Shown here piece by piece: positions 14,235 through 42,548 of a stretch of 64,000 bases of DNA. Numbering within the stretch: position 1 is the stretch's first letter; each line of letters begins with the position of its first letter. This DNA is from an uncultured Kiritimatiellota bacterium. GTDB lineage: Bacteria > Verrucomicrobiota > Kiritimatiellia > RFP12 > UBA1067. The translations under genes and the position numbers were made by a program. Location: the NCBI GenBank assembly GCA_934675625.1, contig CAKURH010000001.1:474-64473 (forward strand), written 5' to 3'. A model generated the notes under the pieces. The model was not told the origin of the DNA, ran no database searches, and was given only the letters and a program-made list of their open reading frames with translations.

Positions 14235-16991
14235 ATGAAGACAGAAGTTCTGGGATTGGTGGCGGCTGTGTTGTGCGGTCTGTCGGCCGTGGCGGCGCAT
14301 GACGCGACGAACGACTGGAACGTCGCGACGGGCGATGCGGCGGAGGCCGCGAACTTCAGTCCGGCGACGGCACCGGGCGCGACGGGCCTCGTCCGCGTCG
14401 GGAACGGCGGCACGCTGTCGGTGACGAGCGACCTCGCGTGGGGTGCGCTGTGGGTCGGCACGGCATCGGCGGACGGTGCGGTCGAGCAGACGGCGGGGAC
14501 GCTGACGTTGTCCGAACCCGGCACGGCGTCGGGCGACGGCACGTTGCGGCTGGGCGATACGAAAGGTTGCCTTGGCACGTATCGGCTGACGGACGGCACG
14601 CTGGACGTTCAGAAGGGCAACCCGCAGATTGGCGTGAATGGCGACGGCCTCTTGTCGGTTGCGGGCGGCACGTTCCGCGCCGTAGGGTATCCGTCCGTCG
14701 GACGGTATGCCGCGGCTTATGGCCAACTCCTTCAGACAGGAGGCTTCGTGGATCTTTCGTCGGCCTCGCAACTGACGGTAGGCGAGAGTGGCGTCGGCAC
14801 GTTGACGCTCGCAGGCGGTGCGGCGCAGGTGAAGAAGATGGTCGTCGGTGCGGGCGAGACGGGGCGTGGCCTCGTCAACCTGTGCGCGGGCGGTTCGCTG
14901 TCCGTGGGCGCAGTGTCGGGTGGCAAGGCCACGGACACGCGCTTCAACGCCGTGGGCGGGACACTGAAACCGCAGTCCTCTGCCGAGAGCGTACCGGACT
15001 GGTTTGCGGGCGTTCCCGTCACGGTCGGTGCGGGCGGCCTCGTTGTCGATACGGACGGCAAAACGGCAACGCTCGCCGCGCCGCTCTCCGCCTCGCGGCT
15101 TGTGGCGGAGAATCTTGCGCACCGGTGGAGCTTCAACGGCGACTGGACGGATTCCGTCGGCGCGCAGGATGCGATGGCGGCGGGGGCACAGGCGGATCAG
15201 ATTGCGTTCGCGGATGGCGAAGTGCGTTTGCCGGGGCTCGGCAAGGGACAGGCCACGCTTGCGCTCGGCGCGGGTGTCGTGCCGAGCGGATTGGACGGCG
15301 TGACGATCGAGCTGTGGGCGACGCCTGAAGAGACGCGCATCTGGTCGCGCGTCTTCACGGCGGCTTCGGCGGACGGGGCTCAGACGCTGTATCTTGCGTG
15401 GGCGAATGACCAGAACGTCGAGAAGGGTGCGTTTTGCCTGAAGGCGAACGGCGAGACGCTGTGGAACAACACGTCGGATTTTGCGCCGCTTGCGTTGGGG
15501 CGGAAGTGGCATTTCGCCTTCGTCTTCGCGAAGTCCGGCGCGGGCTGGACGGTGACGGCGCTGAAGCAGGATCCGCGCACGGGCTTCCGCGTCCAGAGCG
15601 AGACGAAGACGATCGCATCGGGCGACTGGGATCCGGCGAGCCTGTTCAGCGGCTTCTTCAACCTCGGCTATTCGGCCAATGACGCGGATGCCTGTGCGCG
15701 CTATGACGAGGTGCGCGTCTGGAAGGTCGCCCTCACCGAAAGCGAGCTGCTGGAGTCGGCGACGCGCGGGCCGGATGCGGACTTCGCGACGCCGCCGGTT
15801 CTCCGCAAGGCGGGCGACGGGACGCTTGCGCTGACGGCGGCGGCGTCCTATGCGGGCGCGACGGACGTCACGGCGGGCACATTGGCTTTGGCAACGCCGG
15901 AAATGCCAGTTCATCGGTGGCATGAGACCATTGAACTGCCGGGCGGCGCACACGGTACGGCGTACAGGGCGCTCGGCAAGGGGCTGTTGCCGACGACGGA
16001 GGCCGGCTTCACGCTGGAACTCTGGGCTACGTTGCACGAGGCACGCAATTGGTCGCGGCTCTTCACGTTCGCCGATGAGGGCAATGCGAACGGCTTCTTC
16101 ATGACGTGGGTGAGCGGCACGGACAACTCGAAGGACATGATCGGTCTGCGTCAGCAGAAGACAACGACCGTCAGCAACAAGATGGCACCCTACGAACTGG
16201 AGGTTCCCTATCATGTGACCGTTGTCTGCGTGAAGGTTGAAGACGCCTGGAAATTCCGCTTCTACAAGCGGAACGTCCGCACGGGTGACTTGGAGAAGAC
16301 CTACGAAATGAAGACGCCGGATGGTTGGACGCCGTCAGCGCTTGCGGCCTGCGCGTTCAACCTCGGCTGGTCGACGGACAGCGGGAACGACGATGCGGCG
16401 GCGCGTTACGACGAGATCCGCATTTGGAATCGTGCGTTCACCGAAGCCGACGTGGTGGCGTCGGGTTGTGCGGGTGCGGATCGTCTGCCGTTCTTCGTAT
16501 CGGAAGATGCGACGTGCAGCGCCTTGCCGGAAGCAACGGATCTCGTGGTGGCGGACGGGGCGACCGTTGCGCTTGGCGGCGCGTCGCAGACCGTGAAAAC
16601 CCTGTCGGGTGCGGGCACGGTGTCCGGATCGGGCACGCTGACGGCGACGGCGGGCATCTTTCCCGGCGGCTCGGGTGCGATTGGCGAGCTGACGCTGGCG
16701 GCGGACGTGAAGGTGGTCGGCGAGGTTGTCTTGGACGTGTCGGCGGACGGCATGAGCGACGCACTGGCGTTTGCGGTCGACGGAACCTACGACGTGTCGG
16801 GGTTGCGTTTGGCGGTCGCCGATCCGGCGAAGCTCGATCCGACGAAGCGGTATGCGGTCTTGCGGCCGAACGGTGCGACGTTGCTCGGCGAACCGGATGT
16901 ATCGGCCCTGCCGGACGGTTGGCGTCTGCGGTTGAGAAACGGCGTCGTCCAGTTAGCCTGCCGTCGCGGCCTGGCGATTCTGCTACGCTGA
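14235..16991 (+). CDS. Large secreted surface protein (918 aa) with Gly/Thr-rich beta-strand repeats and two LamG/concanavalin-like (Laminin_G_3-type) domains
   Basis: Signal peptide MKTEVLGLVAAVLCGLSAVAA. Internal duplication, each copy ending with the LamG hallmark (DEVRVWKVALTESEL / DEIRIWNRAFTEADV). N-terminal GTLT/GGTL repeats resemble autotransporter-associated beta-strand repeats. Confidence 0.7.
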   Translation: MKTEVLGLVAAVLCGLSAVAAHDATNDWNVATGDAAEAANFSPATAPGATGLVRVGNGGTLSVTSDLAWGALWVGTASADGAVEQTAGTLTLSEPGTASGDGTLRLGDTKGCLGTYRLTDGTLDVQKGNPQIGVNGDGLLSVAGGTFRAVGYPSVGRYAAAYGQLLQTGGFVDLSSASQLTVGESGVGTLTLAGGAAQVKKMVVGAGETGRGLVNLCAGGSLSVGAVSGGKATDTRFNAVGGTLKPQSSAESVPDWFAGVPVTVGAGGLVVDTDGKTATLAAPLSASRLVAENLAHRWSFNGDWTDSVGAQDAMAAGAQADQIAFADGEVRLPGLGKGQATLALGAGVVPSGLDGVTIELWATPEETRIWSRVFTAASADGAQTLYLAWANDQNVEKGAFCLKANGETLWNNTSDFAPLALGRKWHFAFVFAKSGAGWTVTALKQDPRTGFRVQSETKTIASGDWDPASLFSGFFNLGYSANDADACARYDEVRVWKVALTESELLESATRGPDADFATPPVLRKAGDGTLALTAAASYAGATDVTAGTLALATPEMPVHRWHETIELPGGAHGTAYRALGKGLLPTTEAGFTLELWATLHEARNWSRLFTFADEGNANGFFMTWVSGTDNSKDMIGLRQQKTTTVSNKMAPYELEVPYHVTVVCVKVEDAWKFRFYKRNVRTGDLEKTYEMKTPDGWTPSALAACAFNLGWSTDSGNDDAAARYDEIRIWNRAFTEADVVASGCAGADRLPFFVSEDATCSALPEATDLVVADGATVALGGASQTVKTLSGAGTVSGSGTLTATAGIFPGGSGAIGELTLAADVKVVGEVVLDVSADGMSDALAFAVDGTYDVSGLRLAVADPAKLDPTKRYAVLRPNGATLLGEPDVSALPDGWRLRLRNGVVQLACRRGLAILLR

Positions 16992-17056
16992 CATCAAGTT
17001 TTCTCGTTTTGGCGCTTCGTTTCGACGAAAAGCCTTTGCGGACTTTGCGTCAAAAG

Positions 17057-17376
17057 CCTTTGCGACCTTTGCGTTGAAAAGAAGTATGGGGTGCAAGAAC
17101 AGTTCGCAGTCTCTGCGAGAGGTCGTCGGCGCGTGGGGAGTCTGCGACGCTGAACACGGAGGTGTTGGAGGAAGGGAGGCACGGAGGTGGTGTGAGGCTT
17201 GGGACTCCGTGTCTCACGAACTCCGTCACCTCCGTGTTAAACGCCGTAGGCAACAGGGCTCTGCCAGACTTTTTGTATTCTAACGCAAAGAACGCAGAGG
17301 GGAGAAACGCGAAGAGCGCAAAGACCTTTGCGACCTTTGCGTTGAAAAGAAGTATGGGGTGCAAGAACAGTTCGCA
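17057..17376. repeat. About 268-bp tandem duplication: two 52-bp direct repeats (17057-17108 and 17325-17376) flanking MITE copy A1
   Basis: cctttgcgacctttgcgttgaaaagaagtatggggtgcaagaacagttcgca occurs twice. Confidence 0.6.
17140..17264. repeat. MITE-like palindromic repeat, copy A1 (core …GCTGAACACGGAGG…CCTCCGTGTTAAACGC…)
   Basis: Internal inverted repeats aacacggaggtg/cacctccgtgtt and ggcacggag/ctccgtgtc. Homologous to at least 9 other copies in this window. Confidence 0.7.
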
Positions 17377-17501
17377 TGTGGTGCGAAGCCAGCCTCTCGC
17401 TACGCTCTCCTTGCCCCGCGAAGCGGCACCTGTGTTAAAAAACGCCGACCGAGGTGACGCAAAAAAAGCGCAAATAAGGAGAATCGCAAAAAGTGCGTTT
17501 G

Positions 17502-17519
17502 CCCCTTTATATAAAGGGG
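17502..17519. promoter_or_regulatory. Perfect 18-bp palindrome CCCCTTTATATAAAGGGG in the long leader region of the beta-helix gene
   Basis: Seen directly. Followed by a duplicated ttgcgcgaaatagacgg motif (17543-17580). Confidence 0.3.
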
Positions 17520-17666
17520 TTGGTGCAAGTTTCGGGAAAAGAGTTTGCGCGAAATAGACGGCAATTTTTGCGCGAAATAGACGGAAGAATTTGACAAGAA
17601 ACCCCGGTTTATGATAGACTTCACATTTGTCACGTGGAGGAATCGGGTGTGTCTATACGGTGTAGT

Positions 17667-17679
17667 CCCCCCCCCCCCC
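17667..17679. repeat. Homopolymeric C13 tract 24 nt upstream of the start codon of the 1397-aa beta-helix surface protein; candidate slipped-strand phase-variation switch
   Basis: gtgtagt-CCCCCCCCCCCCC-attaaatgctaaaaaatactaaaaATG. Confidence 0.55.
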
Positions 17680-17703
17680 ATTAAATGCTAAAAAATACTA
17701 AAA

Positions 17704-20700
17704 ATGAATACAAAACTAATAGTTAAAGCGTTTCTCGGGGCGGTTTTCGCCTTGACCGGCGCGCGGCTCTCGGCGGAAACGCGGGTCGTCGACAAGCTCC
17801 ATGGGCCGTATTTTTCGGTTCAAGAAGCCGTGGATGCGGCATCTGAAGGCGATACGGTCTTCATCAAAAACGGCGTCCATGACGTGGGCGGCAGTCTCGA
17901 CGGCTTTAAGACGTCCATGTCGAACCGCGTCTACGTCACGAAGTCCCTCACGCTCGTCGGCGAGTCGAAGGAGGGCGCGATCATCAAGGGGGCCTACGCG
18001 ACGGAGGGCGTTGACGACAAGGGCCTCGGTTGCGGTGCGAACGCCGTGCGCTGTCTCGGCATCAATGCGGACAACGTCGTCGTCTCGAACCTGACGCTCA
18101 CGGGCGGCGCGACGCACAGCACGTCCGCCGGGAACGACAAGGAGGAGAACAACGGCGGCGGCGTCTACGTGGCGAACGGGAGGACGGGCGTCGTCCTTGT
18201 GGACTGCATCGTCTCCAACAACGTCGCGCGACGTGCGGGTGCGCTGCGCTACGCCAACGACGGTGCGGCCAATCACGGCAACTGCCTTCTCGTGCGCACG
18301 TGGGTTCACGCCAACAAGGCGCTAGACCGCGATCCCGCCGTGCGCGGATGTCTCGCGGCGTTCTGCCTCTTCACGGGGCATTACAGCAGCTCCAGCCTCT
18401 CCTATGCGGTGACGTTCGTGAACTGCACGTTCGCGGACGGCTTCGGGCGCAACCACAGCGGTAGCGCGGACGTGGCGGGCTACAACTGCCTCTTCGCCGA
18501 CACGTGGTTCAAGGACGAGAACGCGGTGGATCAGGCCCCGGCCGCCGCGCAGTGGCACAACTGCGCGTTCAACAAGCAGGACGCCACCACGACCTCGACG
18601 ACGAACGCGGCCTGCGTCTTCAATCCCGGCTATGACCTCTTCATGGCGCCGCCGCTCGCCGACTACCGCCTCCATGACGGCGCGATGACAGTCATCGGCA
18701 AGGGCGACGCTTCGTTCCTCGATCAGATTCCCGAAGCATATCGGAACATCGACTTCTATGGCCATGCGGTCGATGCCGCGTCCGTGAGTCTCGGCTGTGC
18801 GCAGGAAGTCGTCGCACCGACCGGCGGCACGATCACGTTTGCCGGGCAGAGCGGGATGTCGGACGCGAAACAGCCGCTCGGCAGCTATGGCGTGAAGACG
18901 GATTGCGGTCTCTATTCCTTCAACGGACGGCCCCTTGGAAACTCGAAAGACCTGGGCTACGTCCGCACGATGGAGGGCCGCACGGTCGTTACGGTCACGC
19001 ACGATCCGGCAGGCGCAACCTCAGAGGCGCGCCAAAATGGGCTTCACTCGTTTGCCGCGTCGGGATCGGACACGATGCGGCGCTTCGCGCAGATGGACGG
19101 CTCGTTTGCCCTGATGGCGCCGCCCGCCGGAAAGACGCTTACGCTTACGCCCACGTTCAACGATGCCGTCCTTACGGTCGATCGCGCCTCCACGTCCGAA
19201 AATCCGGATGGGACGGAAGACGCGCCCTATGCGAGCATTCAGGCGGCGATTGACAAAGTTGCTTCGGGAAAGTTCGCGACGATTCGCGTCAAGGCGGGCG
19301 TCTACGACAACGATGCGGGACGCTTGGCCAACAACCTCACGAACCGAATCTTCTCGAATGGCCGCAAGGTGAGGCTCGTCTCGGTGGACGGACGCGGCAA
19401 GGCCGTTCTGCTTGGTGCTCCCGATCCGAGCGTCGCACTCGATGCTTGGCCGTTTGGCTGCGGGGCGGGCGCGATGCGGTGCGCGGTCCTGCAGGACGGA
19501 TGCGCTATTCAGGGCTTTGCCTTGACGCGCGGCTACTCGAACACGAACGCCGACAACACGGGCCGTCGCGGCGGCGCACTCTGGCTGAACCAGGGCGCGG
19601 CGGCGCTCGACTGCGTCATCACGAACAACGTAGGCTGGCAGGGCGTCGCGATCAACGGAGCGGAATCCGGCCTGGTGCCGTCGGCGTTTGCCCTGCGGTG
19701 CTACATCGCCGACAATTATCCGATTACGGACGCCGCAAAGACAGGCGGCATTGGAGGCATCGTCCGCTCGACGACCGTTGGCTCGTCGATTCTCTACGAC
19801 AACCACGGCAGCAACTTCGGCAGCTATGAGCGGCAGTACACGTTCCAGACGACGCTTGCGGACGGTGCGGGCGCGGACAACGGCAACCTGCTCAATGGCG
19901 CCAATAACGTAAACGCCGTCATCCTCGCGAAGACTGGCAACCTCAGTAGTCCGACGCTCATCGGTGGCGTCTACCAGACGGCAAACGGCAAAATCAATGT
20001 GGAGGCCTCGTCCTCGTTCATGAACGCCGATCCCCTACTGGCCGATCCGGCGTACGGCGACTTTCGCTTGGGCGCGACCTCGCCCGCGCGAACGTGTGGC
20101 GTGACGACGCACGACGACTTTACGGATTCGACGAAGGCGGCCTACTACATGTTCGGCGCGACGGACTTCTTCGGCAACGTCTTCCGCCTGTTCGACGGCA
20201 AGCCCGTCTGCGGTGCGGTCGACCTCTATGCGCCGACGGTCATCTTCAACGGCGAGACGAAGGTGTTGGGCGTGTCGTCCGACCGCACGCTCACGTACAC
20301 GAGTACGGGCGACGATCCGCATCCGTGGCTTGGTCTGGAGGTGACAGAGAACGGCACCGTCACGACGAACGCGACGAAGAGCTTCACCTACACGGTGCCG
20401 GATTCGATAGACAACCCGTATGCTTTGACGATTCGCGACCTCTATGACTCGAACTGGTACGTGAGCGATGCGGACGGCGATGATGCGAATGCGGGTTCGT
20501 CCGCCGCGCCGAAGAAGACGCTCAAGGGTGCGCTTCAGTACGCCGTGTCGGGTGACACCGTGCACGTCGCGGCGGGCACGTATGCGACCGAGACGATGAC
20601 GCAGACGAAGGCGTTTGGAGCCATGAACAATGCAGCGTATGCGCTTCCGTCGCGCGCCGTCGTGCCGGCAGGTGTGTCCGTCATCGGTGCGGGCGCGGAC

Positions 20701-21897
20701 AAGACGTTTATCGTTGGTGCGGAAGATCCGTCGGCAGAGGCGGCAAACAAGGGTTGCGGGCCGAACGCTGTCCGTTGCGTCGCGCTTGCGAAGGGTGCGC
20801 GGCTTTCGGGCTTTACGCTGACAGGCGGACGCACAAACGCCGGAACCAAGAACGCCGAAGGAAGCTTCCCGAATGTCGATGATGACGAAGGCGGCGGCGT
20901 CTTGGCCGAATATGGCACGGAAGCCGATCTGGCGGTCGTCTCGGACTGCATCATCTCGAACTGCGTCGCACGGCGTGGCGGCGGTGGCTATAACGGGGTT
21001 TACAACCGTGTCCAGTTCTTGGAGAACAGCATTATCCAAAGTGGCAACGGTGCTGCTGCGCGCGGCAATGACGGCAAGTCCTGCATCCTTGCAAACTGCC
21101 TTATCGATCGCAACGAGGGCTGGGCGACGGTTTATTATCCGACGCTCGTCAACTGCACGTTTGGCGCGGACAACACGCACAGCGGCAACAGGGAGGGTCA
21201 GCAGGTTATTGCAGATGCGCCTGCCGTGACGAACTGCCTGATTTTGGGCACGAAGATTGCCACGGCGAGGACGGCGTTTTACGGTTGCGCATTCTCGTCC
21301 GCGACGGAAACGCTCCTGAAAAAGAACTCATCAGCGGGCGTGGATGCCAGCTGTCTTGTCTCGGACGACTTGTCGGTGGACGCGAATCTGGCGCCGGTCA
21401 TTGGCGCGAACGATGCGGTCGATGCGGCGGGGGCTGCTTTCTACGATGCGGCGAAGTGGGGCGATCTTGACGTCTACGGGAATCCGCGCGTGATGAACGG
21501 CAACCGGCTGGACGTCGGCGCGGTCGAGGCCGACTGGCGTCCGCTCTACACGAAGAAGATCGGCAAGCGGTTCGTCGTCACGGCGGTTGATCCGGCGGTG
21601 GAACTGGTCGACGACGGCGTGGCGATTCCGGCAGGGGCGTCGCTCGCGGCGACGGTTGGCCGTGCGGGCCGCGCGGATGGCGCCTACTTCCTGAAGGCGA
21701 CGGTTGCGGACGGCGCGACGTGTGCGGTCACGCGCGATGGCGTGGCGGCGGAGTCGCTGACGGCGGGCGAGAACGTGGTGCGCTATGTGACGGGCGAGAC
21801 GGGGCTTTCGGACTTCGTCTTCACGGCGGATGCGCTCGGCTCGACGGTGCTGTCGTCGCTCAAGGCCGACACCGGCATGCTGCTGATTCTGCGGTAA
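17704..21897 (+). CDS. Giant secreted right-handed parallel beta-helix (pectin-lyase-fold) protein made of three tandem homologous beta-helix modules
   Basis: Signal peptide MNTKLIVKAFLGAVFALTGARLSA. Three modules each begin with a …QAAID…G..V.VKAGVY-type cap and contain GCG.NAVRC…LTGG…GGGV blocks (about aa 60-200, 530-640, 905-1010). AT-rich 5' end. Confidence 0.7.
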   Translation: MNTKLIVKAFLGAVFALTGARLSAETRVVDKLHGPYFSVQEAVDAASEGDTVFIKNGVHDVGGSLDGFKTSMSNRVYVTKSLTLVGESKEGAIIKGAYATEGVDDKGLGCGANAVRCLGINADNVVVSNLTLTGGATHSTSAGNDKEENNGGGVYVANGRTGVVLVDCIVSNNVARRAGALRYANDGAANHGNCLLVRTWVHANKALDRDPAVRGCLAAFCLFTGHYSSSSLSYAVTFVNCTFADGFGRNHSGSADVAGYNCLFADTWFKDENAVDQAPAAAQWHNCAFNKQDATTTSTTNAACVFNPGYDLFMAPPLADYRLHDGAMTVIGKGDASFLDQIPEAYRNIDFYGHAVDAASVSLGCAQEVVAPTGGTITFAGQSGMSDAKQPLGSYGVKTDCGLYSFNGRPLGNSKDLGYVRTMEGRTVVTVTHDPAGATSEARQNGLHSFAASGSDTMRRFAQMDGSFALMAPPAGKTLTLTPTFNDAVLTVDRASTSENPDGTEDAPYASIQAAIDKVASGKFATIRVKAGVYDNDAGRLANNLTNRIFSNGRKVRLVSVDGRGKAVLLGAPDPSVALDAWPFGCGAGAMRCAVLQDGCAIQGFALTRGYSNTNADNTGRRGGALWLNQGAAALDCVITNNVGWQGVAINGAESGLVPSAFALRCYIADNYPITDAAKTGGIGGIVRSTTVGSSILYDNHGSNFGSYERQYTFQTTLADGAGADNGNLLNGANNVNAVILAKTGNLSSPTLIGGVYQTANGKINVEASSSFMNADPLLADPAYGDFRLGATSPARTCGVTTHDDFTDSTKAAYYMFGATDFFGNVFRLFDGKPVCGAVDLYAPTVIFNGETKVLGVSSDRTLTYTSTGDDPHPWLGLEVTENGTVTTNATKSFTYTVPDSIDNPYALTIRDLYDSNWYVSDADGDDANAGSSAAPKKTLKGALQYAVSGDTVHVAAGTYATETMTQTKAFGAMNNAAYALPSRAVVPAGVSVIGAGADKTFIVGAEDPSAEAANKGCGPNAVRCVALAKGARLSGFTLTGGRTNAGTKNAEGSFPNVDDDEGGGVLAEYGTEADLAVVSDCIISNCVARRGGGGYNGVYNRVQFLENSIIQSGNGAAARGNDGKSCILANCLIDRNEGWATVYYPTLVNCTFGADNTHSGNREGQQVIADAPAVTNCLILGTKIATARTAFYGCAFSSATETLLKKNSSAGVDASCLVSDDLSVDANLAPVIGANDAVDAAGAAFYDAAKWGDLDVYGNPRVMNGNRLDVGAVEADWRPLYTKKIGKRFVVTAVDPAVELVDDGVAIPAGASLAATVGRAGRADGAYFLKATVADGATCAVTRDGVAAESLTAGENVVRYVTGETGLSDFVFTADALGSTVLSSLKADTGMLLILR

Positions 21898-33512: not shown

Positions 33513-35327
33513 ATGAGTTTCAAAGGGAAGAAAGAGAAGAACGTCGTCTTGGTCGGGACGTACAGGACGGGACAGCTGGAGCGTTGGCCCGGTTACTACA
33601 ACTGGCCGCTTGCGGACGGGGATGTGGTCGATGCCGAGGCGGCGAAAACGGTCAACGAAATCTGGCTCTTCAGCGGCACGAAGGGAGGACGTTTCGCGGC
33701 GGAGTTCGTCGGCATGTTCACGCGCGGCGAGCTTGTGCGCGACTTCGGCTATCCGGCGAAGGGTGCGGCGCACGGTACGCGGTATCTGCTCTACAAGATC
33801 CAGACGACTGATGCGCCCGCGAATACGTCGGATGTATTGGCGGCGGAGATGGATCGCGTGATCGTGCGCGCGGCGGACTTCGCGAAGCGGTCGCCGAAGA
33901 TTGCGCGCGAAATCAAGGCGTATCTCGAATCGTCTGACCGCAACAACCCAGACCTCGCACACCGACTTCCGCCGCTTCTCCTGAAGGTGCCGCGCGAAAA
34001 CCTGCGCGTCTGCGAACCGGGCGTACAGATGGATTTTCTATCTTCCCTTTCAATCTCCTCCACGCATGAATGCGATAAAGTCGATTATTTTGTAGAATCA
34101 AAGAAGAACCCGATTGCCGAATTGCGTTCTATCCAACCGCTCACGGCAAATGGATTCACGCATGTTGATTGCTTTAGTGGCGTTGGAGGCTTCTGCACAG
34201 GGCTTCATGCCGCTGGATTCACGACAAAGGTCGCAATTGAGAAAATTCGCTCGTGCGTCGAGACGTATGAGGCAAACCACCCAGAAGTTCATGTGATCAA
34301 CGAAGACATCTGCAAAGTTAAGGCCGAAGACATTCTCCCCTATTGTCCCAAGGGTGGAATCGATCTCGTCACTTCTGGAATGCCTTGCGAGACGTTCTCG
34401 ACCGCCGGGAACACGTCGCGGAGTTTCTATGACGAACGGCAATTCCTGTTTCGGCAGGGCATTCGGGTTGCACAGATTACGAATGCCAAGTTTCTGCTAT
34501 TCGAGAACGTGCCAGCCATCACGACAAAGACGACGGAAAAGGGGTCGAAAGACCTTATTGTTGATGCATTGAAGGATGAGATGGCGAAAGCCGGTTACAG
34601 AAACTACATTGAGGTCGTTCTGGATGCGACGAAATTTGGCGTGCCGCAAAAACGCAAACGCTATTTTGTCCTTGGCACGAGGCTGAAGAACATGTCTTTG
34701 AGCAAGCCACGGCCATTTGTCGCAAAGGCCGTGACTGTCGGAGAGGCATTTGACGATTTGCCGTCGGTGACACCAAATACGGGCGTCGAAGAGACGCATT
34801 ACCTGTCGCGTTCAAACGCCTTCACGAAGCTGATGCGCGATGATTCGTTCTGGCGGCGAAAAGAGTCGTCCAATAAGGGACTCTCGTACCAAATGCCGAT
34901 GAAGCATCGTCCGGCTACGTTGGAGCGATTCGGATTGCTTCGCCCAGGAGAAGGGCTTCGCGAACTATTTGAGCGCTACACGGGACGTGCGCGCGAAGAA
35001 CTCCAGTCGCGTCGTGTACTGCCGAAGAAGATGTTCATCAAAAGGAATTATCGTCTGCCCGTCGGGATGCCATCGCCATGCGTCACGTCGCATTGCCTGG
35101 ACGAATTTGTGCATCCAACGGAAGACCGCGCATTGACCGTGCGCGAATGCGCACGGTTGCAGTCATTCCCTGATTCGTATGATTTCGTCGGGGGGCCTTA
35201 CATTGTGCCGCACATTGATCGTGAAGTTCAGGACAAGTATGAGCAGATTGGCGATGCCGTGCCACCGTTGTTGGCGTATGCCTGGGGGCGGGCGATTTCA
35301 AAAATGATGGAGGATGTCTCGAAATGA
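33513..35327 (+). CDS. DNA (cytosine-5)-methyltransferase with an about 170-aa N-terminal extension domain of unknown function; the ORF spans a sharp GC-content break near nt 34020
   Basis: C5-MTase motifs are present in order: I FSGVGG, IV GMPCETFS, VI ENV, VIII QKRKRYFVLG, then RECARLQSFPDSY. The N-terminal 170 aa are GC-rich and host-like; the MTase body is AT-richer. Confidence 0.8.
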   Translation: MSFKGKKEKNVVLVGTYRTGQLERWPGYYNWPLADGDVVDAEAAKTVNEIWLFSGTKGGRFAAEFVGMFTRGELVRDFGYPAKGAAHGTRYLLYKIQTTDAPANTSDVLAAEMDRVIVRAADFAKRSPKIAREIKAYLESSDRNNPDLAHRLPPLLLKVPRENLRVCEPGVQMDFLSSLSISSTHECDKVDYFVESKKNPIAELRSIQPLTANGFTHVDCFSGVGGFCTGLHAAGFTTKVAIEKIRSCVETYEANHPEVHVINEDICKVKAEDILPYCPKGGIDLVTSGMPCETFSTAGNTSRSFYDERQFLFRQGIRVAQITNAKFLLFENVPAITTKTTEKGSKDLIVDALKDEMAKAGYRNYIEVVLDATKFGVPQKRKRYFVLGTRLKNMSLSKPRPFVAKAVTVGEAFDDLPSVTPNTGVEETHYLSRSNAFTKLMRDDSFWRRKESSNKGLSYQMPMKHRPATLERFGLLRPGEGLRELFERYTGRAREELQSRRVLPKKMFIKRNYRLPVGMPSPCVTSHCLDEFVHPTEDRALTVRECARLQSFPDSYDFVGGPYIVPHIDREVQDKYEQIGDAVPPLLAYAWGRAISKMMEDVSK

Positions 35328-36175
35328 AATGCACTTATAAAGAATATGGCCGTTCTATCTATGACAAGACGTTCGATCATGAACTGCAAGGACTTGTGAC
35401 TCGGAAAAAGAAGGTCGGTGAGAAAGAGGCCGAACGAATGGCGCAAAAGGAAGCCATCAAGGTGGCTGTCCTTGAAACGATGCGGGCGTTTCCGCAAATC
35501 GAGCCTGCCTTGATTTGGAGGGGAATTTATGAGGTGCATATCCATCGCAAGAGTGGACTGGATGACAAGTCCGTGATTGATCGCGTCGTAAGCGCTGATC
35601 AGAGTTGGAAGAAGTCGAGTGGGCATGCGTTTGAGGAAATGATCAAACTCTTGGCAAACGATGCTCTTGTCGGCACGGGAATCGAGATTCTTCTTCAGAG
35701 AGACCTCAATACGATTATCAAGGCGGGTGAGCTTGCCAATGAACCGCGTGACATCAGTTGGCTGAAGGAACAAATCAAGGGAAGCGTCTTTGATCTGTTT
35801 GCAACATGCGTAAATAAGGATGGAAAGCGGTTTTGTTACGGATGCATTCAAAGCAAGACAAGCATACGAGACCGCGTGACACGGGATCGCGAGCCATCTT
35901 TGGCGGCTATGCATTCGTTCTTCTGGAGCACGGTCATTGTCTTGGATGGCGATTTTATGAAGAATCCAAAGTTCCTCGCAATGGTCGATGGAGGGACGCA
36001 CGAATATCCTGATAACGGATGGCATGGCATGTACGTGTTCTCGGATCTTTATAAGGGACAACGAGTCTATCCCATTCATGTTGATTTCAAGAGATTCGCC
36101 GAACATGCAAAGATTGCGGCTGAGTATTGGAAAACCCAGCGACAGTGGTTTGACGAGAAGTGGAAGGCCGAATAA
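35324..36175 (+). CDS. Hypothetical protein, translationally coupled (ATGA) to the C5-MTase; candidate cognate type II restriction endonuclease
   Basis: 283 aa with no recognisable family. Low GC like the MTase body. A possible degenerate PD…(D/Q)xK segment (VFDLF…YGCIQSK). Assigned by position only. Confidence 0.4.
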   Translation: MKCTYKEYGRSIYDKTFDHELQGLVTRKKKVGEKEAERMAQKEAIKVAVLETMRAFPQIEPALIWRGIYEVHIHRKSGLDDKSVIDRVVSADQSWKKSSGHAFEEMIKLLANDALVGTGIEILLQRDLNTIIKAGELANEPRDISWLKEQIKGSVFDLFATCVNKDGKRFCYGCIQSKTSIRDRVTRDREPSLAAMHSFFWSTVIVLDGDFMKNPKFLAMVDGGTHEYPDNGWHGMYVFSDLYKGQRVYPIHVDFKRFAEHAKIAAEYWKTQRQWFDEKWKAE

Positions 36176-36264
36176 GGCTTGTCGTGGTGTGTGTGCCGAG
36201 TGAGTTCAGAGGATGTGTTGAAGAAGAAGCGAAAGATTTTGGTTGTGCTCGGATTGAGAGGTGA

Positions 36265-37455
36265 ATGATGAAGTGCTTGCTCGGTCGGCTCAAGTTTTTG
36301 AACGCCATTCTCCTGATTGCAGCCCTCTGGGCGGCGCAAGGTTCGGGTGCTGCCGAGAAGACGAATGTCTTCTTCGTACATGGCGCAAACGTGAGTGAAC
36401 GTGAATCGCATATCTGGGCGTCGGTGATGTTCAAGCGGCTCTGGCAGTCGGGTGCGAATATGGAGTTCTGTCCCGTGGCGTGGGAGTCAGACATCGGCCC
36501 GGCCTACAACTATCATGTCAACGCCTCAAACGCCTTCGTCACCGCCCGTCGCCTCGCGTCGCTCATCAATGGTGCGTCAGGGCGCAAGGTGGTGATTGCG
36601 CACAGCCTTGGCACGATGGTTGTTGCGGCGGCCATTCAGGACTACGGTCTGCAGGTCGACAAGTTCATCATGCTCAATTCTGCGATTCCGTCAGAGGCGT
36701 TTGAACCGTCGTTGGCCGACTATTCGCCAGAGAACCATCTTGTTCATGCGGATTGGACAGATTATCCGTCTCGATGCTGGGTGGCGCGATGGCACGAATT
36801 CTTTGTCAAGGATCCGAATGATGCGCGCGCCAAGCTGACGTGGAAGGGGCGTTTTTCCAAGGTGAAGTCTGTTGCCGTCAACTTCTATTCATCGGGCGAT
36901 GAGGTTGAGGAAATCTACTTGGATAGCCAGAATCCGGCTTGGTATAATGGCGTCAGCCCGTCAGGCAATTGGGGTGATCGCTACTCGTGGCACAAGCAGG
37001 AGATTTGGAAGGGGCGCAAATCACTTCTCGGCTTCATGGGCACGACGGACTGGTCTGGTTGGGGGTTCCGAACAAAAGGCCTGTTGAATACGCGTGTGTG
37101 GTCTGTCGCTGATGCGAATGCCGTCACGGATTTTGCCGTTTTCAAAACAAACACCGTGTTTTCCCTTAGCCCAGGTTCCATCTCTGACGCAGAAAGCTCG
37201 CGTTTGATTATTGATGCACATTTGGCACAAGGAATTCCTGCACTGTCTCCACCGACGGGTCGAACGAACCTGACCGAATATGGGATTCCGTCTTTTGACT
37301 TGAACACGCCGGAGTTCATGTCGAGCAAGTGGCCTCGTTGCGAACCAGGAGACGAACTTTCCTTTCGGTGGCTTCATTCGGACGTCAAAAATGTTGCCTA
37401 TCATTACACGTACCCGCTTTTTCGGAAGATCGTTGAGATCGGAGGCTTGAAATGA
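36265..37455 (+). CDS. Exported alpha/beta-hydrolase, lipase/esterase-like (GxSxG = HSLGT)
   Basis: Signal peptide MMKCLLGRLKFLNAILLIAALWAAQG. VVIAHSLGTMVV nucleophile elbow. Intermediate GC. Confidence 0.6.
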   Translation: MMKCLLGRLKFLNAILLIAALWAAQGSGAAEKTNVFFVHGANVSERESHIWASVMFKRLWQSGANMEFCPVAWESDIGPAYNYHVNASNAFVTARRLASLINGASGRKVVIAHSLGTMVVAAAIQDYGLQVDKFIMLNSAIPSEAFEPSLADYSPENHLVHADWTDYPSRCWVARWHEFFVKDPNDARAKLTWKGRFSKVKSVAVNFYSSGDEVEEIYLDSQNPAWYNGVSPSGNWGDRYSWHKQEIWKGRKSLLGFMGTTDWSGWGFRTKGLLNTRVWSVADANAVTDFAVFKTNTVFSLSPGSISDAESSRLIIDAHLAQGIPALSPPTGRTNLTEYGIPSFDLNTPEFMSSKWPRCEPGDELSFRWLHSDVKNVAYHYTYPLFRKIVEIGGLK

Positions 37456-38378
37456 AATTGTTCGTTCAGATGTTATGCCTGACTGTGTGCGTGTGCCCAG
37501 TTCTTGCCTATGATCTGCTTCGCGAGGGCGCTGTTGCGGATGTTCGACTTCAGGTCTTAGACGATCAGGGGACTCCAGTCGAGGGGGCTTTGGCCACAAT
37601 TTGCTTTCAAAGGACATTCGAAAAGTCAGATGTCGTCACGTGTAAGACGGACAAAGACGGTACGTGTGCGGCAAAGCATAAGACAATCGGCGGCCTACGC
37701 GCTTATTTAGAAAAGGATGGCTATTATAAGACGTCCATTCAACCGTTATTTCGGCAATGGGAGTGGCGAAAAGCGCAAGAGACGCAGAAATGGTCGGCGT
37801 GTACGATGGAGTCGACGGTTTGTCTCAAAAAGAGGCGTATGCCTGTTCAGACGGCCTTCCACGCTGTCGATTTCAAGCCGTTCCCGGACACGAACGTTGT
37901 CGTGAAACTCGACTTGGAGACGTTGGCGTGGTGTCCGCCCTACGGAAACGGTCGCCACGACGATCTTCACCTTGTCTTTGACGGATGGCGCAATCCGAAC
38001 GACTGGGACGATTTCCACGAGCACCTGAAGGTCGAGATGCCGAATGGCGCGGATGGGTTCTATGTGGCGAAAACCGATCCGACGAGCGCGTTCAAGTACG
38101 CCTATGCGGCTGACACGAACGCAACGTACCGTAAGTCGTTCACGTTTCGCCATGTCCACAAGGCGGAGGGCATTACGGAGTCGAAGCGGCTTGCCGCCGA
38201 CGAGTATCTGATCTATCGCGTTCGGACGCAGACGAACGAGTTCGGTCAGGTGACACGGGCGCATTACGGGCGCATCGGAGAGAAATTCAGCCAGTACATC
38301 GGCCTCTCGATCAAGAGTTGGTTCAACTCGAACGAGAACGACACCAATCTGGAGGATGCGCGGCAGAGTGTGTGGTAG
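37452..38378 (+). CDS. Hypothetical exported protein, translationally coupled to the lipase-like gene; last gene of the low-GC island
   Basis: ATGA overlap. Signal peptide MKLFVQMLCLTVCVCPVLA. No recognisable domain. Confidence 0.5.
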   Translation: MKLFVQMLCLTVCVCPVLAYDLLREGAVADVRLQVLDDQGTPVEGALATICFQRTFEKSDVVTCKTDKDGTCAAKHKTIGGLRAYLEKDGYYKTSIQPLFRQWEWRKAQETQKWSACTMESTVCLKKRRMPVQTAFHAVDFKPFPDTNVVVKLDLETLAWCPPYGNGRHDDLHLVFDGWRNPNDWDDFHEHLKVEMPNGADGFYVAKTDPTSAFKYAYAADTNATYRKSFTFRHVHKAEGITESKRLAADEYLIYRVRTQTNEFGQVTRAHYGRIGEKFSQYIGLSIKSWFNSNENDTNLEDARQSVW

Positions 38379-42068: not shown

Positions 42069-42548
42069 ATGACAAAGAGAAAAGCACGTAATGAAAAGCC
42101 GCAGGGGCGGCTAGTCGAGACAGGCGTCCGCCCGGCTGGCGTGGCTCTGCTGTCGTTGGCGTGCGCAGGTCTGCTCTCCGGCTTCGCGACAGGGGCTGAC
42201 CTCTCCCCTAGGGGGGGGGCGGCAGCGACGGCGGGCTCACGGCGGGGCGCGACGCGCGCACGTGGGGCAAGCCCGATCCGCGCCTCTTCGACGTCGTCCT
42301 GCCCGACTTCTTCGAGGTGGACTTCGTCCGCGTCTACGACGAGGGGCCGGACGGAACGGAAAATGAGAATTCTGTGCGGAACTAATCAAAAGGAGATCCA
42401 GACATGCAACTCACCACAATCTTGGCGGCTTCGGCCTTGCAGTTCGCGACCGGCATCACGACTGACCGTCCGGCGGGCGTCTTCATCGAGGGCGTCGGCG
42501 CGGCGTTCAGGACCGAGGGCGCGGCGGCGTTCACGCGCTGGACGGTGA
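42069..42548 (+). pseudogene. Small signal-peptide-bearing ORF interrupted by a G9 tract; in the sequenced state it runs into an Arg/Ser-rich out-of-frame tail. With G10 it would encode a 105-aa protein ending at 42385.
   Basis: MTKRKARNEK…VALLSLACAGLLSGFATGADLSPRGG-(G9). One extra G gives …KPDPRLFDVVLPDFFEVDFVRVYDEGPDGTENENSVRN*, which has strong GC3 bias and a stop just before the RBS of the next gene. Confidence 0.35.
42211..42219. repeat. Homopolymeric G9 tract inside the small ORF; candidate phase-variation or frameshift site
   Basis: ctctccccta-GGGGGGGGG-cggcagc. Confidence 0.55.

Follow-up and report, generated by a model that had tools for sequence, protein, structure and literature searches.

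Just ahead of the gene for a large secreted beta-helix protein, an uncultured human-gut bacterium of the Kiritimatiellota carries a run of 13 cytosines whose length differs between closely related strains. Our preferred reading, to which we give roughly even odds (about 0.5), is that this run is a slipped-strand contingency tract situated in the 5' leader of a transcript from an activator-dependent sigma-70-type promoter, and that it acts, if at all, after transcription has been initiated. Slipped-strand mispairing has changed the length of the tract from strain to strain, and a transcript from the promoter predicted at 17591-17620 would carry it at about +41 to +53. As the tract would then lie downstream of the promoter, any effect on expression would be expected to follow initiation. 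The candidate routes are pairing of the leader RNA (with GGAGG or with CGGGGCGG), mRNA stability, and the accessibility of a start codon lacking a Shine-Dalgarno sequence; the outcome would be heritable, stochastic differences in the amount of protein. In its length, its excess over chance, its polymorphism among strains and the kind of gene that follows it, the tract fits the class of homopolymeric contingency tracts. The features concerned are listed in Table 1 by their positions in the window, that is, the whole 64-kb stretch of DNA that was analysed.

Table 1. Features at the poly-C locus, with positions in the window
Feature	Position	Strand	Remarks
Repeat-rich part of the intergenic region	17028-17376	.	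58-nt direct repeats at 17051-17108 and 17319-17376 around a long hairpin (17142-17186 / 17205-17249)
Two tandem 23-nt direct repeats	17544-17589	+	abut the -35; core GCGCGAAATAGACGG at 17547-17561 and 17570-17584
Predicted sigma-70-type promoter	17591-17620	+	-35 TTGACA at 17591-17596; 18-nt spacer; extended -10 TGaTAGACT at 17612-17620
Predicted 5' leader, about 77 nt	17627-17703	+	purine-rich GGAGG at 17636-17640, then the C tract, then 24 A-rich nt
Possible 14-codon uORF (speculative), MCLYGVVPPPPIKC and stop	17647-17691	+	GTG at 17647; TAA at 17689-17691
C13 homopolymer	17667-17679	+	hypermutable; conspecific alleles C7, C13, C14 and at least 15
Gene for the 1397-aa secreted protein	17704-21897	+	three right-handed beta-helix modules; C-terminal tail ending in GMLLILR
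CGGGGCGG, codons 11-14	17736-17743	+	predicted in silico to pair with the poly-C at minimum energy, enclosing the start codon

A cytosine tract of exceptional length

The window has a G+C content of 65%, yet long runs of G or C are avoided in it. According to a run-length table, the longest run of C apart from C13 is six, and the only other long G/C run is a G9 at 42211-42219. None of 100 shuffles that preserved dinucleotide composition contained a C13. The length of the repeat is far above the expectation from genome composition, as is found at simple-sequence-repeat contingency loci. Around the tract, G+C content falls to 0.53 (17001-18000), against about 0.65 elsewhere.

The first-pass annotation had placed the tract 24 nt ahead of the ATG of a 1397-aa open reading frame, behind a long non-coding stretch of about 700 bp with direct repeats and palindromes, and this description of the locus proved correct in all details. 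The gap between the tract and the ATG at 17704 is exactly 24 nt, A/T-rich and with only three G or C. The non-coding stretch (16992-17703) measures 712 nt and contains, besides the 58-nt direct repeats, an inverted repeat with 45-nt arms and a 23-nt tandem repeat. The two 58-nt repeats are 97% identical and have no further copies in the window; the element that they form with the hairpin is conserved in conspecific assemblies.

On reading the sequence, the N-terminus of the encoded protein resembles a Sec signal peptide (MNTKLIVKAFLGAVFALTGARLSA/ETR). Pfam returned weak matches to DUF1565 and Beta_helix, and each of the three modules opens with a cap motif of the DUF1565/Pel9A type. An AlphaFold model of residues 25-500 (27 homologs) had a pLDDT of 82.5, and its best matches in the PDB were all right-handed beta-helix proteins active on carbohydrates: pectin methylesterases, PL6 and PL9 lyases, and Rhombotarget A. 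The signal-peptide-like N-terminus and the model bear out the earlier designation of a secreted beta-helix protein and put the gene among the surface, secreted or host-interaction genes at which contingency loci occur; a location on the surface is plausible.

The neighbours of the gene encode a GH2 glycosidase, a PATR/LamG protein and an FAD oxidoreductase. The PATR/LamG gene (14235-16991) adjoins the beta-helix gene, and the two proteins have similar C-termini, GLAILLR (16965-16991) and GMLLILR (21871-21897). Both consist of G, five hydrophobic residues, R and the stop, an ending absent from every other long open reading frame in the window. It may be a short C-terminal sorting tag, for which NCBIfam gave no match.

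In species-representative genomes, orthologous loci occur in Kiritimatiellota MAGs from Hadza and Nepali human guts, horse faeces and rumen, and the identical protein is present in Hadza and other gut metagenome assemblies. One contig of the species-representative collection with such a locus (L005, CAVJWR010000093.1) is titled Limosilactobacillus gorillae; with 60% G+C and synteny to the Kiritimatiellota loci, it is very probably a mis-binned contaminant.

Tract length differs between conspecific strains

The exact protein, its cluster mates and the 185-aa gene downstream served to retrieve conspecific assemblies. Seven independent assemblies read through the tract, with identical sequence to either side of it. 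Over 6.1 kb, these seven sequences differ in 17 substitution columns, and the tract is their sole internal indel. They form three haplotypes separated by 6-12 SNPs in 6.1 kb (0.1-0.2%), each with a tract length of its own. The length is C13 in haplotype A, to which the window and L039 belong, and C14 in haplotype B, as seen in four independent assemblies (L023/L045, L024, L025 and L049); haplotype C (L002/L047) has C7 together with one neighbouring A-to-T change. Another four of the 11 assemblies end or have a gap precisely at the tract. L001/L051 ends there with 10 C, L026 starts there with 13 C, L048 starts there with 15 C and hence carries an allele of at least 15, and L022/L044 has C7 followed by a gap of 41 N. 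These breaks count in favour of our reading, though as a hint of mixed lengths within a population they are no more than suggestive.

Differences of one nucleotide at long homopolymers can be errors in Illumina assemblies. The same lengths recur within a haplotype, however (C14 four times, C13 twice), which argues that they are not assembly noise. That the consensus length of haplotype B is steady across hosts, all four samples having C14, counts against our reading. A length polymorphism between close strains, with conserved flanks, is the pattern that contingency loci display. The length heterogeneity anticipated for a hypermutable tract is thus seen between strains (C7, C13, C14 and at least 15) in consensus contigs; JGI metagenome contigs, scanned for the tract together with its flanks, yielded none that matched. 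As far as consensus sequences can tell, replication slippage is shown to have produced alleles of different lengths among near-identical strains.

Two further observations concern the coding region of the same species. Eight of the 17 conspecific substitutions lie within about 105 nt (~18020-18125, codons ~105-140 of the beta-helix gene), a cluster that may mark either a recombination tract or a segment that diversifies locally. In scaffold L046 (560-1070), residues 111-1397 are identical to those of the window protein, and the first ~110 residues, the leader and the promoter are paralog-like and lack the C tract. This scaffold is either the product of recombination with a paralog or chimeric.

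The tract lies downstream of a predicted, conserved promoter

A consensus scan of 16900-17800 returned a single sigma-70-type site, which matches the consensus in 10 of 12 positions and includes the TG of an extended -10. Its -10 ends 47 nt upstream of the tract, and its position would put the start of transcription near 17627. Immediately ahead of this promoter stand two copies of TTTGCGCGAAATAGACGG with a period of 23 bp, and the tandem repeats to which they belong are probable binding sites for a transcription activator.

The same layout, namely two GCGMRAAAYAGACGR repeats, 5-6 nt, TTGACr, 17 or 18 nt and TAnAnT, recurs upstream of an ortholog with 83% identity (L040, motif at 1047-1061), its relative L009 (2867-2881), L008 (2910-2924) and the paralog-like 5' end of L046 (649-663), with divergent spacers and leaders. 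In the window the operator-like motif occurs twice in exact form (17547-17584). Such conservation in company with three types of leader makes the promoter assignment fairly secure. That GCGMRAAAYAGACGR is common to genes of the beta-helix family in several Kiritimatiellota MAGs suggests a dedicated activator with a small regulon.

A gapless alignment sets C13 opposite an interrupted C-rich sequence, CCGCCACCGTCCC, in the leader of L040. It would follow that a C-rich segment of the leader has turned into a pure homopolymer in the window species. The conserved promoter upstream and this alignment to the L040 leader together place the tract within the predicted transcript.

Long tracts at the orthologous gene of a sister species

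Orthologs from a sister species, with 85-87% protein identity, differ from the window in the upstream region and have no leader tract like that of the window. Two other tracts precede the ATG in this species, one of C at a distance of about 335 nt and one of G at about 133 nt. Ten contigs encoding an identical 1403-aa protein show C9, C10 or C11 and G8, G9 or G10 in five combinations, and the two tracts are the sole internal indels in 6.6 kb. Two of these contigs (L028 and L036) have no SNPs between them over the 6.6 kb, yet one has G9 and the other G10. The tract states do not follow the SNP distances, an indication of recurrent mutation. Other sets with identical proteins show G14 against G8, or G11, G8 and G9, and L004 has G15. 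Relative to the predicted start sites, the tracts of the sister species are about 70 nt upstream, on the far side of the putative operator.

Of the seven G/C runs of at least eight in about 140 kb of unique sequence from the clade, six belong to the regulatory region of this one gene. Such tracts are missing upstream of the more distant orthologs and paralogs (L006-L009 and L040), and are therefore recent and lineage-specific.

The upstream region of the sister species (L003 2160-2445, L004, L027-L036) contains two divergent promoters, each with a G tract upstream on its own strand, in the order G tract, 5-6 nt, TTTATTGCAAxT with the palindrome ATTGCAAT inside it, about 20 nt, and -35. In L037, L038 and L041-L043, zeta-toxin, RelE and MqsA-type genes stand upstream instead, and the G tract alone is kept. 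We also considered an invertible segment in the sister species, flanked by the inverted sequences TTGCAATAAA...C9 and G10...TTTATTGCAA, and rejected it: the flanked segment includes neither promoter, and where the upstream gene is a different one, strains retain one arm only.

Other features of orthologous loci were seen close to the start codon. In L003-L005, the leader over about 60 nt before the ATG (L003 2455-2500) is fully conserved and consists of AAAGGAG followed by a 7-bp hairpin, CCGTCCC/GGGATGG. The hairpin holds a mini-ORF, ATG GGA TGG TAG, which ends 5 nt from the main ATG and with it may form an arrangement for translational coupling or standby. The 69% ortholog in L006 (2978-2992) begins ATG AAA AAA AAA; this A9 run in codons 2-4 is potentially a further slippery tract, located inside the coding start.

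Does tract length matter?

A serious rival to our reading, although one we place below even odds, is that the tract is unstable and neutral, a C-rich leader segment having become pure by chance and slipping ever since with no consequence for expression. The interrupted C-rich 13-mer that L040 has in the same place would need only four substitutions. Strains that are otherwise similar maintain alleles as unlike as C7 and C14. The position of the tract is not conserved across species, which also counts directly against our explanation.

The predicted folding of the leader points the same way. The folds pair the C tract either with the G-rich arm containing GGAGG or with CGGGGCGG, and the minimum free energy falls from -20.5 kcal/mol at C7 to -22.8 kcal/mol, the value shared by C11 to C15. 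This change with length is gradual and saturates beyond ~6-11 C, folding being insensitive to length beyond ~6 C. As a structured element the leader hairpin was rejected, for it is no more stable than shuffled sequences (z = -0.09); the hairpin between the G-rich 5' arm and the C tract looks alike in the window and L040. Rfam gave no match in the whole window at gathering thresholds, and in the intergenic region at E up to 1 only generic hairpin matches to miRNA families. The gradual response of the folds, the z value and the lack of an Rfam family all weigh against an effect through the leader.

The main argument against neutrality is the clustering of three separate long tracts, in two species, at the regulatory region of one orthologous gene. 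Furthermore, long G/C runs are strongly avoided elsewhere, no other run of C in the 64 kb exceeding six, and all alleles of the tract are uninterrupted, whereas neutral tracts would be expected to decay by interruption.

A more specific route to length-dependent expression would be a short uORF driven by GGAGG-N6-GTG (17636-17649). The length of the tract would set its frame, its stop and hence re-initiation at the main ATG, and stalling at polyproline could add to the effect. We consider this mechanism unlikely. The spacing of 6 nt between GGAGG and GTG is ideal, and the tract would supply the four proline codons of the uORF. The ATG of the beta-helix gene lacks a Shine-Dalgarno sequence, unlike most other genes for secreted proteins in the window, which have AGGAG or AAGGA 6-12 nt upstream. 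By reading the sequence, we found that the three possible frames of the uORF stop 12, 2 or 19 nt ahead of the main ATG, so that every frame ends before it; C7 and C13 share a frame. In orthologous leaders, too, a purine-rich motif lies far from the ATG and a tiny uORF comes after it.

The peptide itself, however, is not conserved, its counterparts being five codons in L040, which end before the C-rich segment, and MGW with a stop in L003. The C14 allele alters the frame with no sign of counter-selection. Tiny uORFs easily arise by chance, and GGAGG may instead be the 5' arm of the leader hairpin. On the opposite strand, an open reading frame at 17681-17400 has its ATG fused to G13 and could be imagined as a frameshift switch. 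We rejected it: its GC3 of 0.55 falls short of the 0.78-0.97 seen in real genes, its sequence overlaps the promoter, and the common C14 haplotype shifts its frame.

The first-pass annotation had favoured a switch in the promoter spacer. In such a model the length of the tract would set the distance between -35 and -10, or between activator site and -10, as in Bordetella fim and Neisseria opc/porA. In Bordetella pertussis and B. bronchiseptica, the promoters of fim2, fim3 and fimX contain a C-stretch of up to C19 that is polymorphic between strains and alters transcription (PMC1891110). The tract in the window resembles this stretch in its length of 13-14, the type of gene, its strain-polymorphic length, and the predicted activator site, an activator-site-like repeat just upstream of the promoter. 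In Bordetella fim, however, the stretch lies between the activator site and the -10, whereas the tract of the window follows the -10 at a distance of 47 nt and belongs to the predicted leader. The only sigma-70-like site ends upstream of the tract at a position confirmed by comparison, and the homologous position in L040 is ordinary leader sequence. By reading the sequence, we found no pair of -35 and -10 bracketing the tract; the flanking hexamers match poorly, and only 24 A-rich nt separate the tract from the ATG. A non-canonical promoter is formally possible, since the start near 17627 is deduced from the promoter, but the claim of a promoter-spacer switch did not hold up and we regard it as very unlikely.

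That the tract or its length variation is an artefact of sequencing or assembly, such as poly-G/C read tails or homopolymer miscalls, is scarcely credible, for although several contigs end in the tract and Illumina accuracy drops in long homopolymers, seven independent assemblies read through it into identical flanks, the lengths are reproducible in haplotypes, and differences of 6-7 nt cannot be miscalls.

Relation to known systems and significance

Repeat-driven phase variation is known mainly from pathogens, among them Neisseria, Haemophilus, Campylobacter, Helicobacter and Bordetella, and in gut commensals invertible promoters are the mostly known case. Our preferred reading of a contingency tract in the leader describes a kind of system that is already known, in an unusual phylum and a less common position. 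By analogy, the tract most resembles leader-located repeats such as those of espR, tlpB/RepG and hmw, rather than the promoter-spacer class.

In Mycobacterium tuberculosis, indels in a G7 of the espR 5'UTR recur across lineages and are reported to alter leader folding and translation while leaving the mRNA level unchanged (PMC11898584). Like the espR tract, that of the window is a G/C homopolymer in what we predict to be a 5' leader. The espR 5'UTR is long; the window tract, by contrast, is 24 nt from the ATG, and a post-transcriptional effect of it is a prediction.

The G-repeat in the leader of Helicobacter pylori tlpB, an envelope-related gene, is the target of the small RNA RepG and gives graded, length-dependent control of translation (PMC8295292). 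The likeness is a variable homopolymer in an mRNA leader, again predicted in our case. The tlpB system requires a G repeat and a trans-acting small RNA with a complementary loop, whereas the base in the window is C.

In Haemophilus influenzae, a heptanucleotide repeat in the 5'UTR of the large adhesin gene hmw1A pairs with a G-rich segment, and the number of repeats tunes expression, in dependence on RNase III processing of a long stable hairpin (PMC12721329). The window, unlike hmw1A with its 7-nt unit, has a homopolymer and a predicted hairpin that is weak.

Long poly-G/C tracts are further found at contingency loci of Campylobacter, Neisseria and Helicobacter, and long mononucleotide repeats in Akkermansia muciniphila (PMC8355987, PMC5084427, PMC3048395). 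Common to these loci and the window are a host-associated bacterium and an over-long G/C tract at a surface or glycan-related gene. Most of the tracts in these four genera are intragenic and act by frameshifting, whereas that of the window lies upstream of its gene. Among the bacteria with a proposal of such tracts, Akkermansia stands phylogenetically closest (PVC group), the proposal coming from genome inspection only (PMC3048395). Our literature search turned up no relevant report of phase variation or of homopolymer tracts for the Kiritimatiellota.

Taking both species together, we tentatively propose that hypermutable G/C tracts arose independently within the clade at three sites upstream of one orthologous gene: the leader in the window species and, in the sister species, the distal part of each of the two divergent promoter regions. 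This possible scenario would be the first repeat-based phase or "volume-control" variation in the phylum, operating in the window species through the mRNA leader, perhaps with a proline-coding uORF, and not through promoter geometry.

A poly-C that varies between strains points to stochastic variation of exposed proteins in this uncultured gut Kiritimatiellota lineage, which has been recovered from Hadza and other non-industrial cohorts and whose gene product is large, secreted and of glycan-active type. Metagenome assemblies break at the locus of the tract. The tract also offers a ready marker for following strains and for measuring switching within hosts from existing deep read sets.

Other observations in the window

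The G9 at 42211-42219 lies within a small open reading frame (42070-42387) that starts with the ATG at 42070 and has a signal-peptide-like N-terminus. A conserved-looking C-terminal part, ending in FFEVDFVRVYDE (stop at 42385-42387), is in the -1 frame relative to the small open reading frame, and a G8 or G11 at 42211 would join the two parts. The locus may therefore be a frameshift-type switch or a decayed gene. The G9 is also present in one other assembly, L054, as an identical copy; a lookup of the 807-aa neighbour of the tract gave one non-redundant place only. On its mRNA, the G9 would be complementary to the C13 of the leader, perhaps a mere curiosity.

Finally, 33513-38378 forms an island of about 51% G+C in a genome of 65% G+C. 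With genes for a C5 cytosine DNA methylase and for a restriction endonuclease like BsaWI, it is probably a horizontally acquired restriction-modification system.
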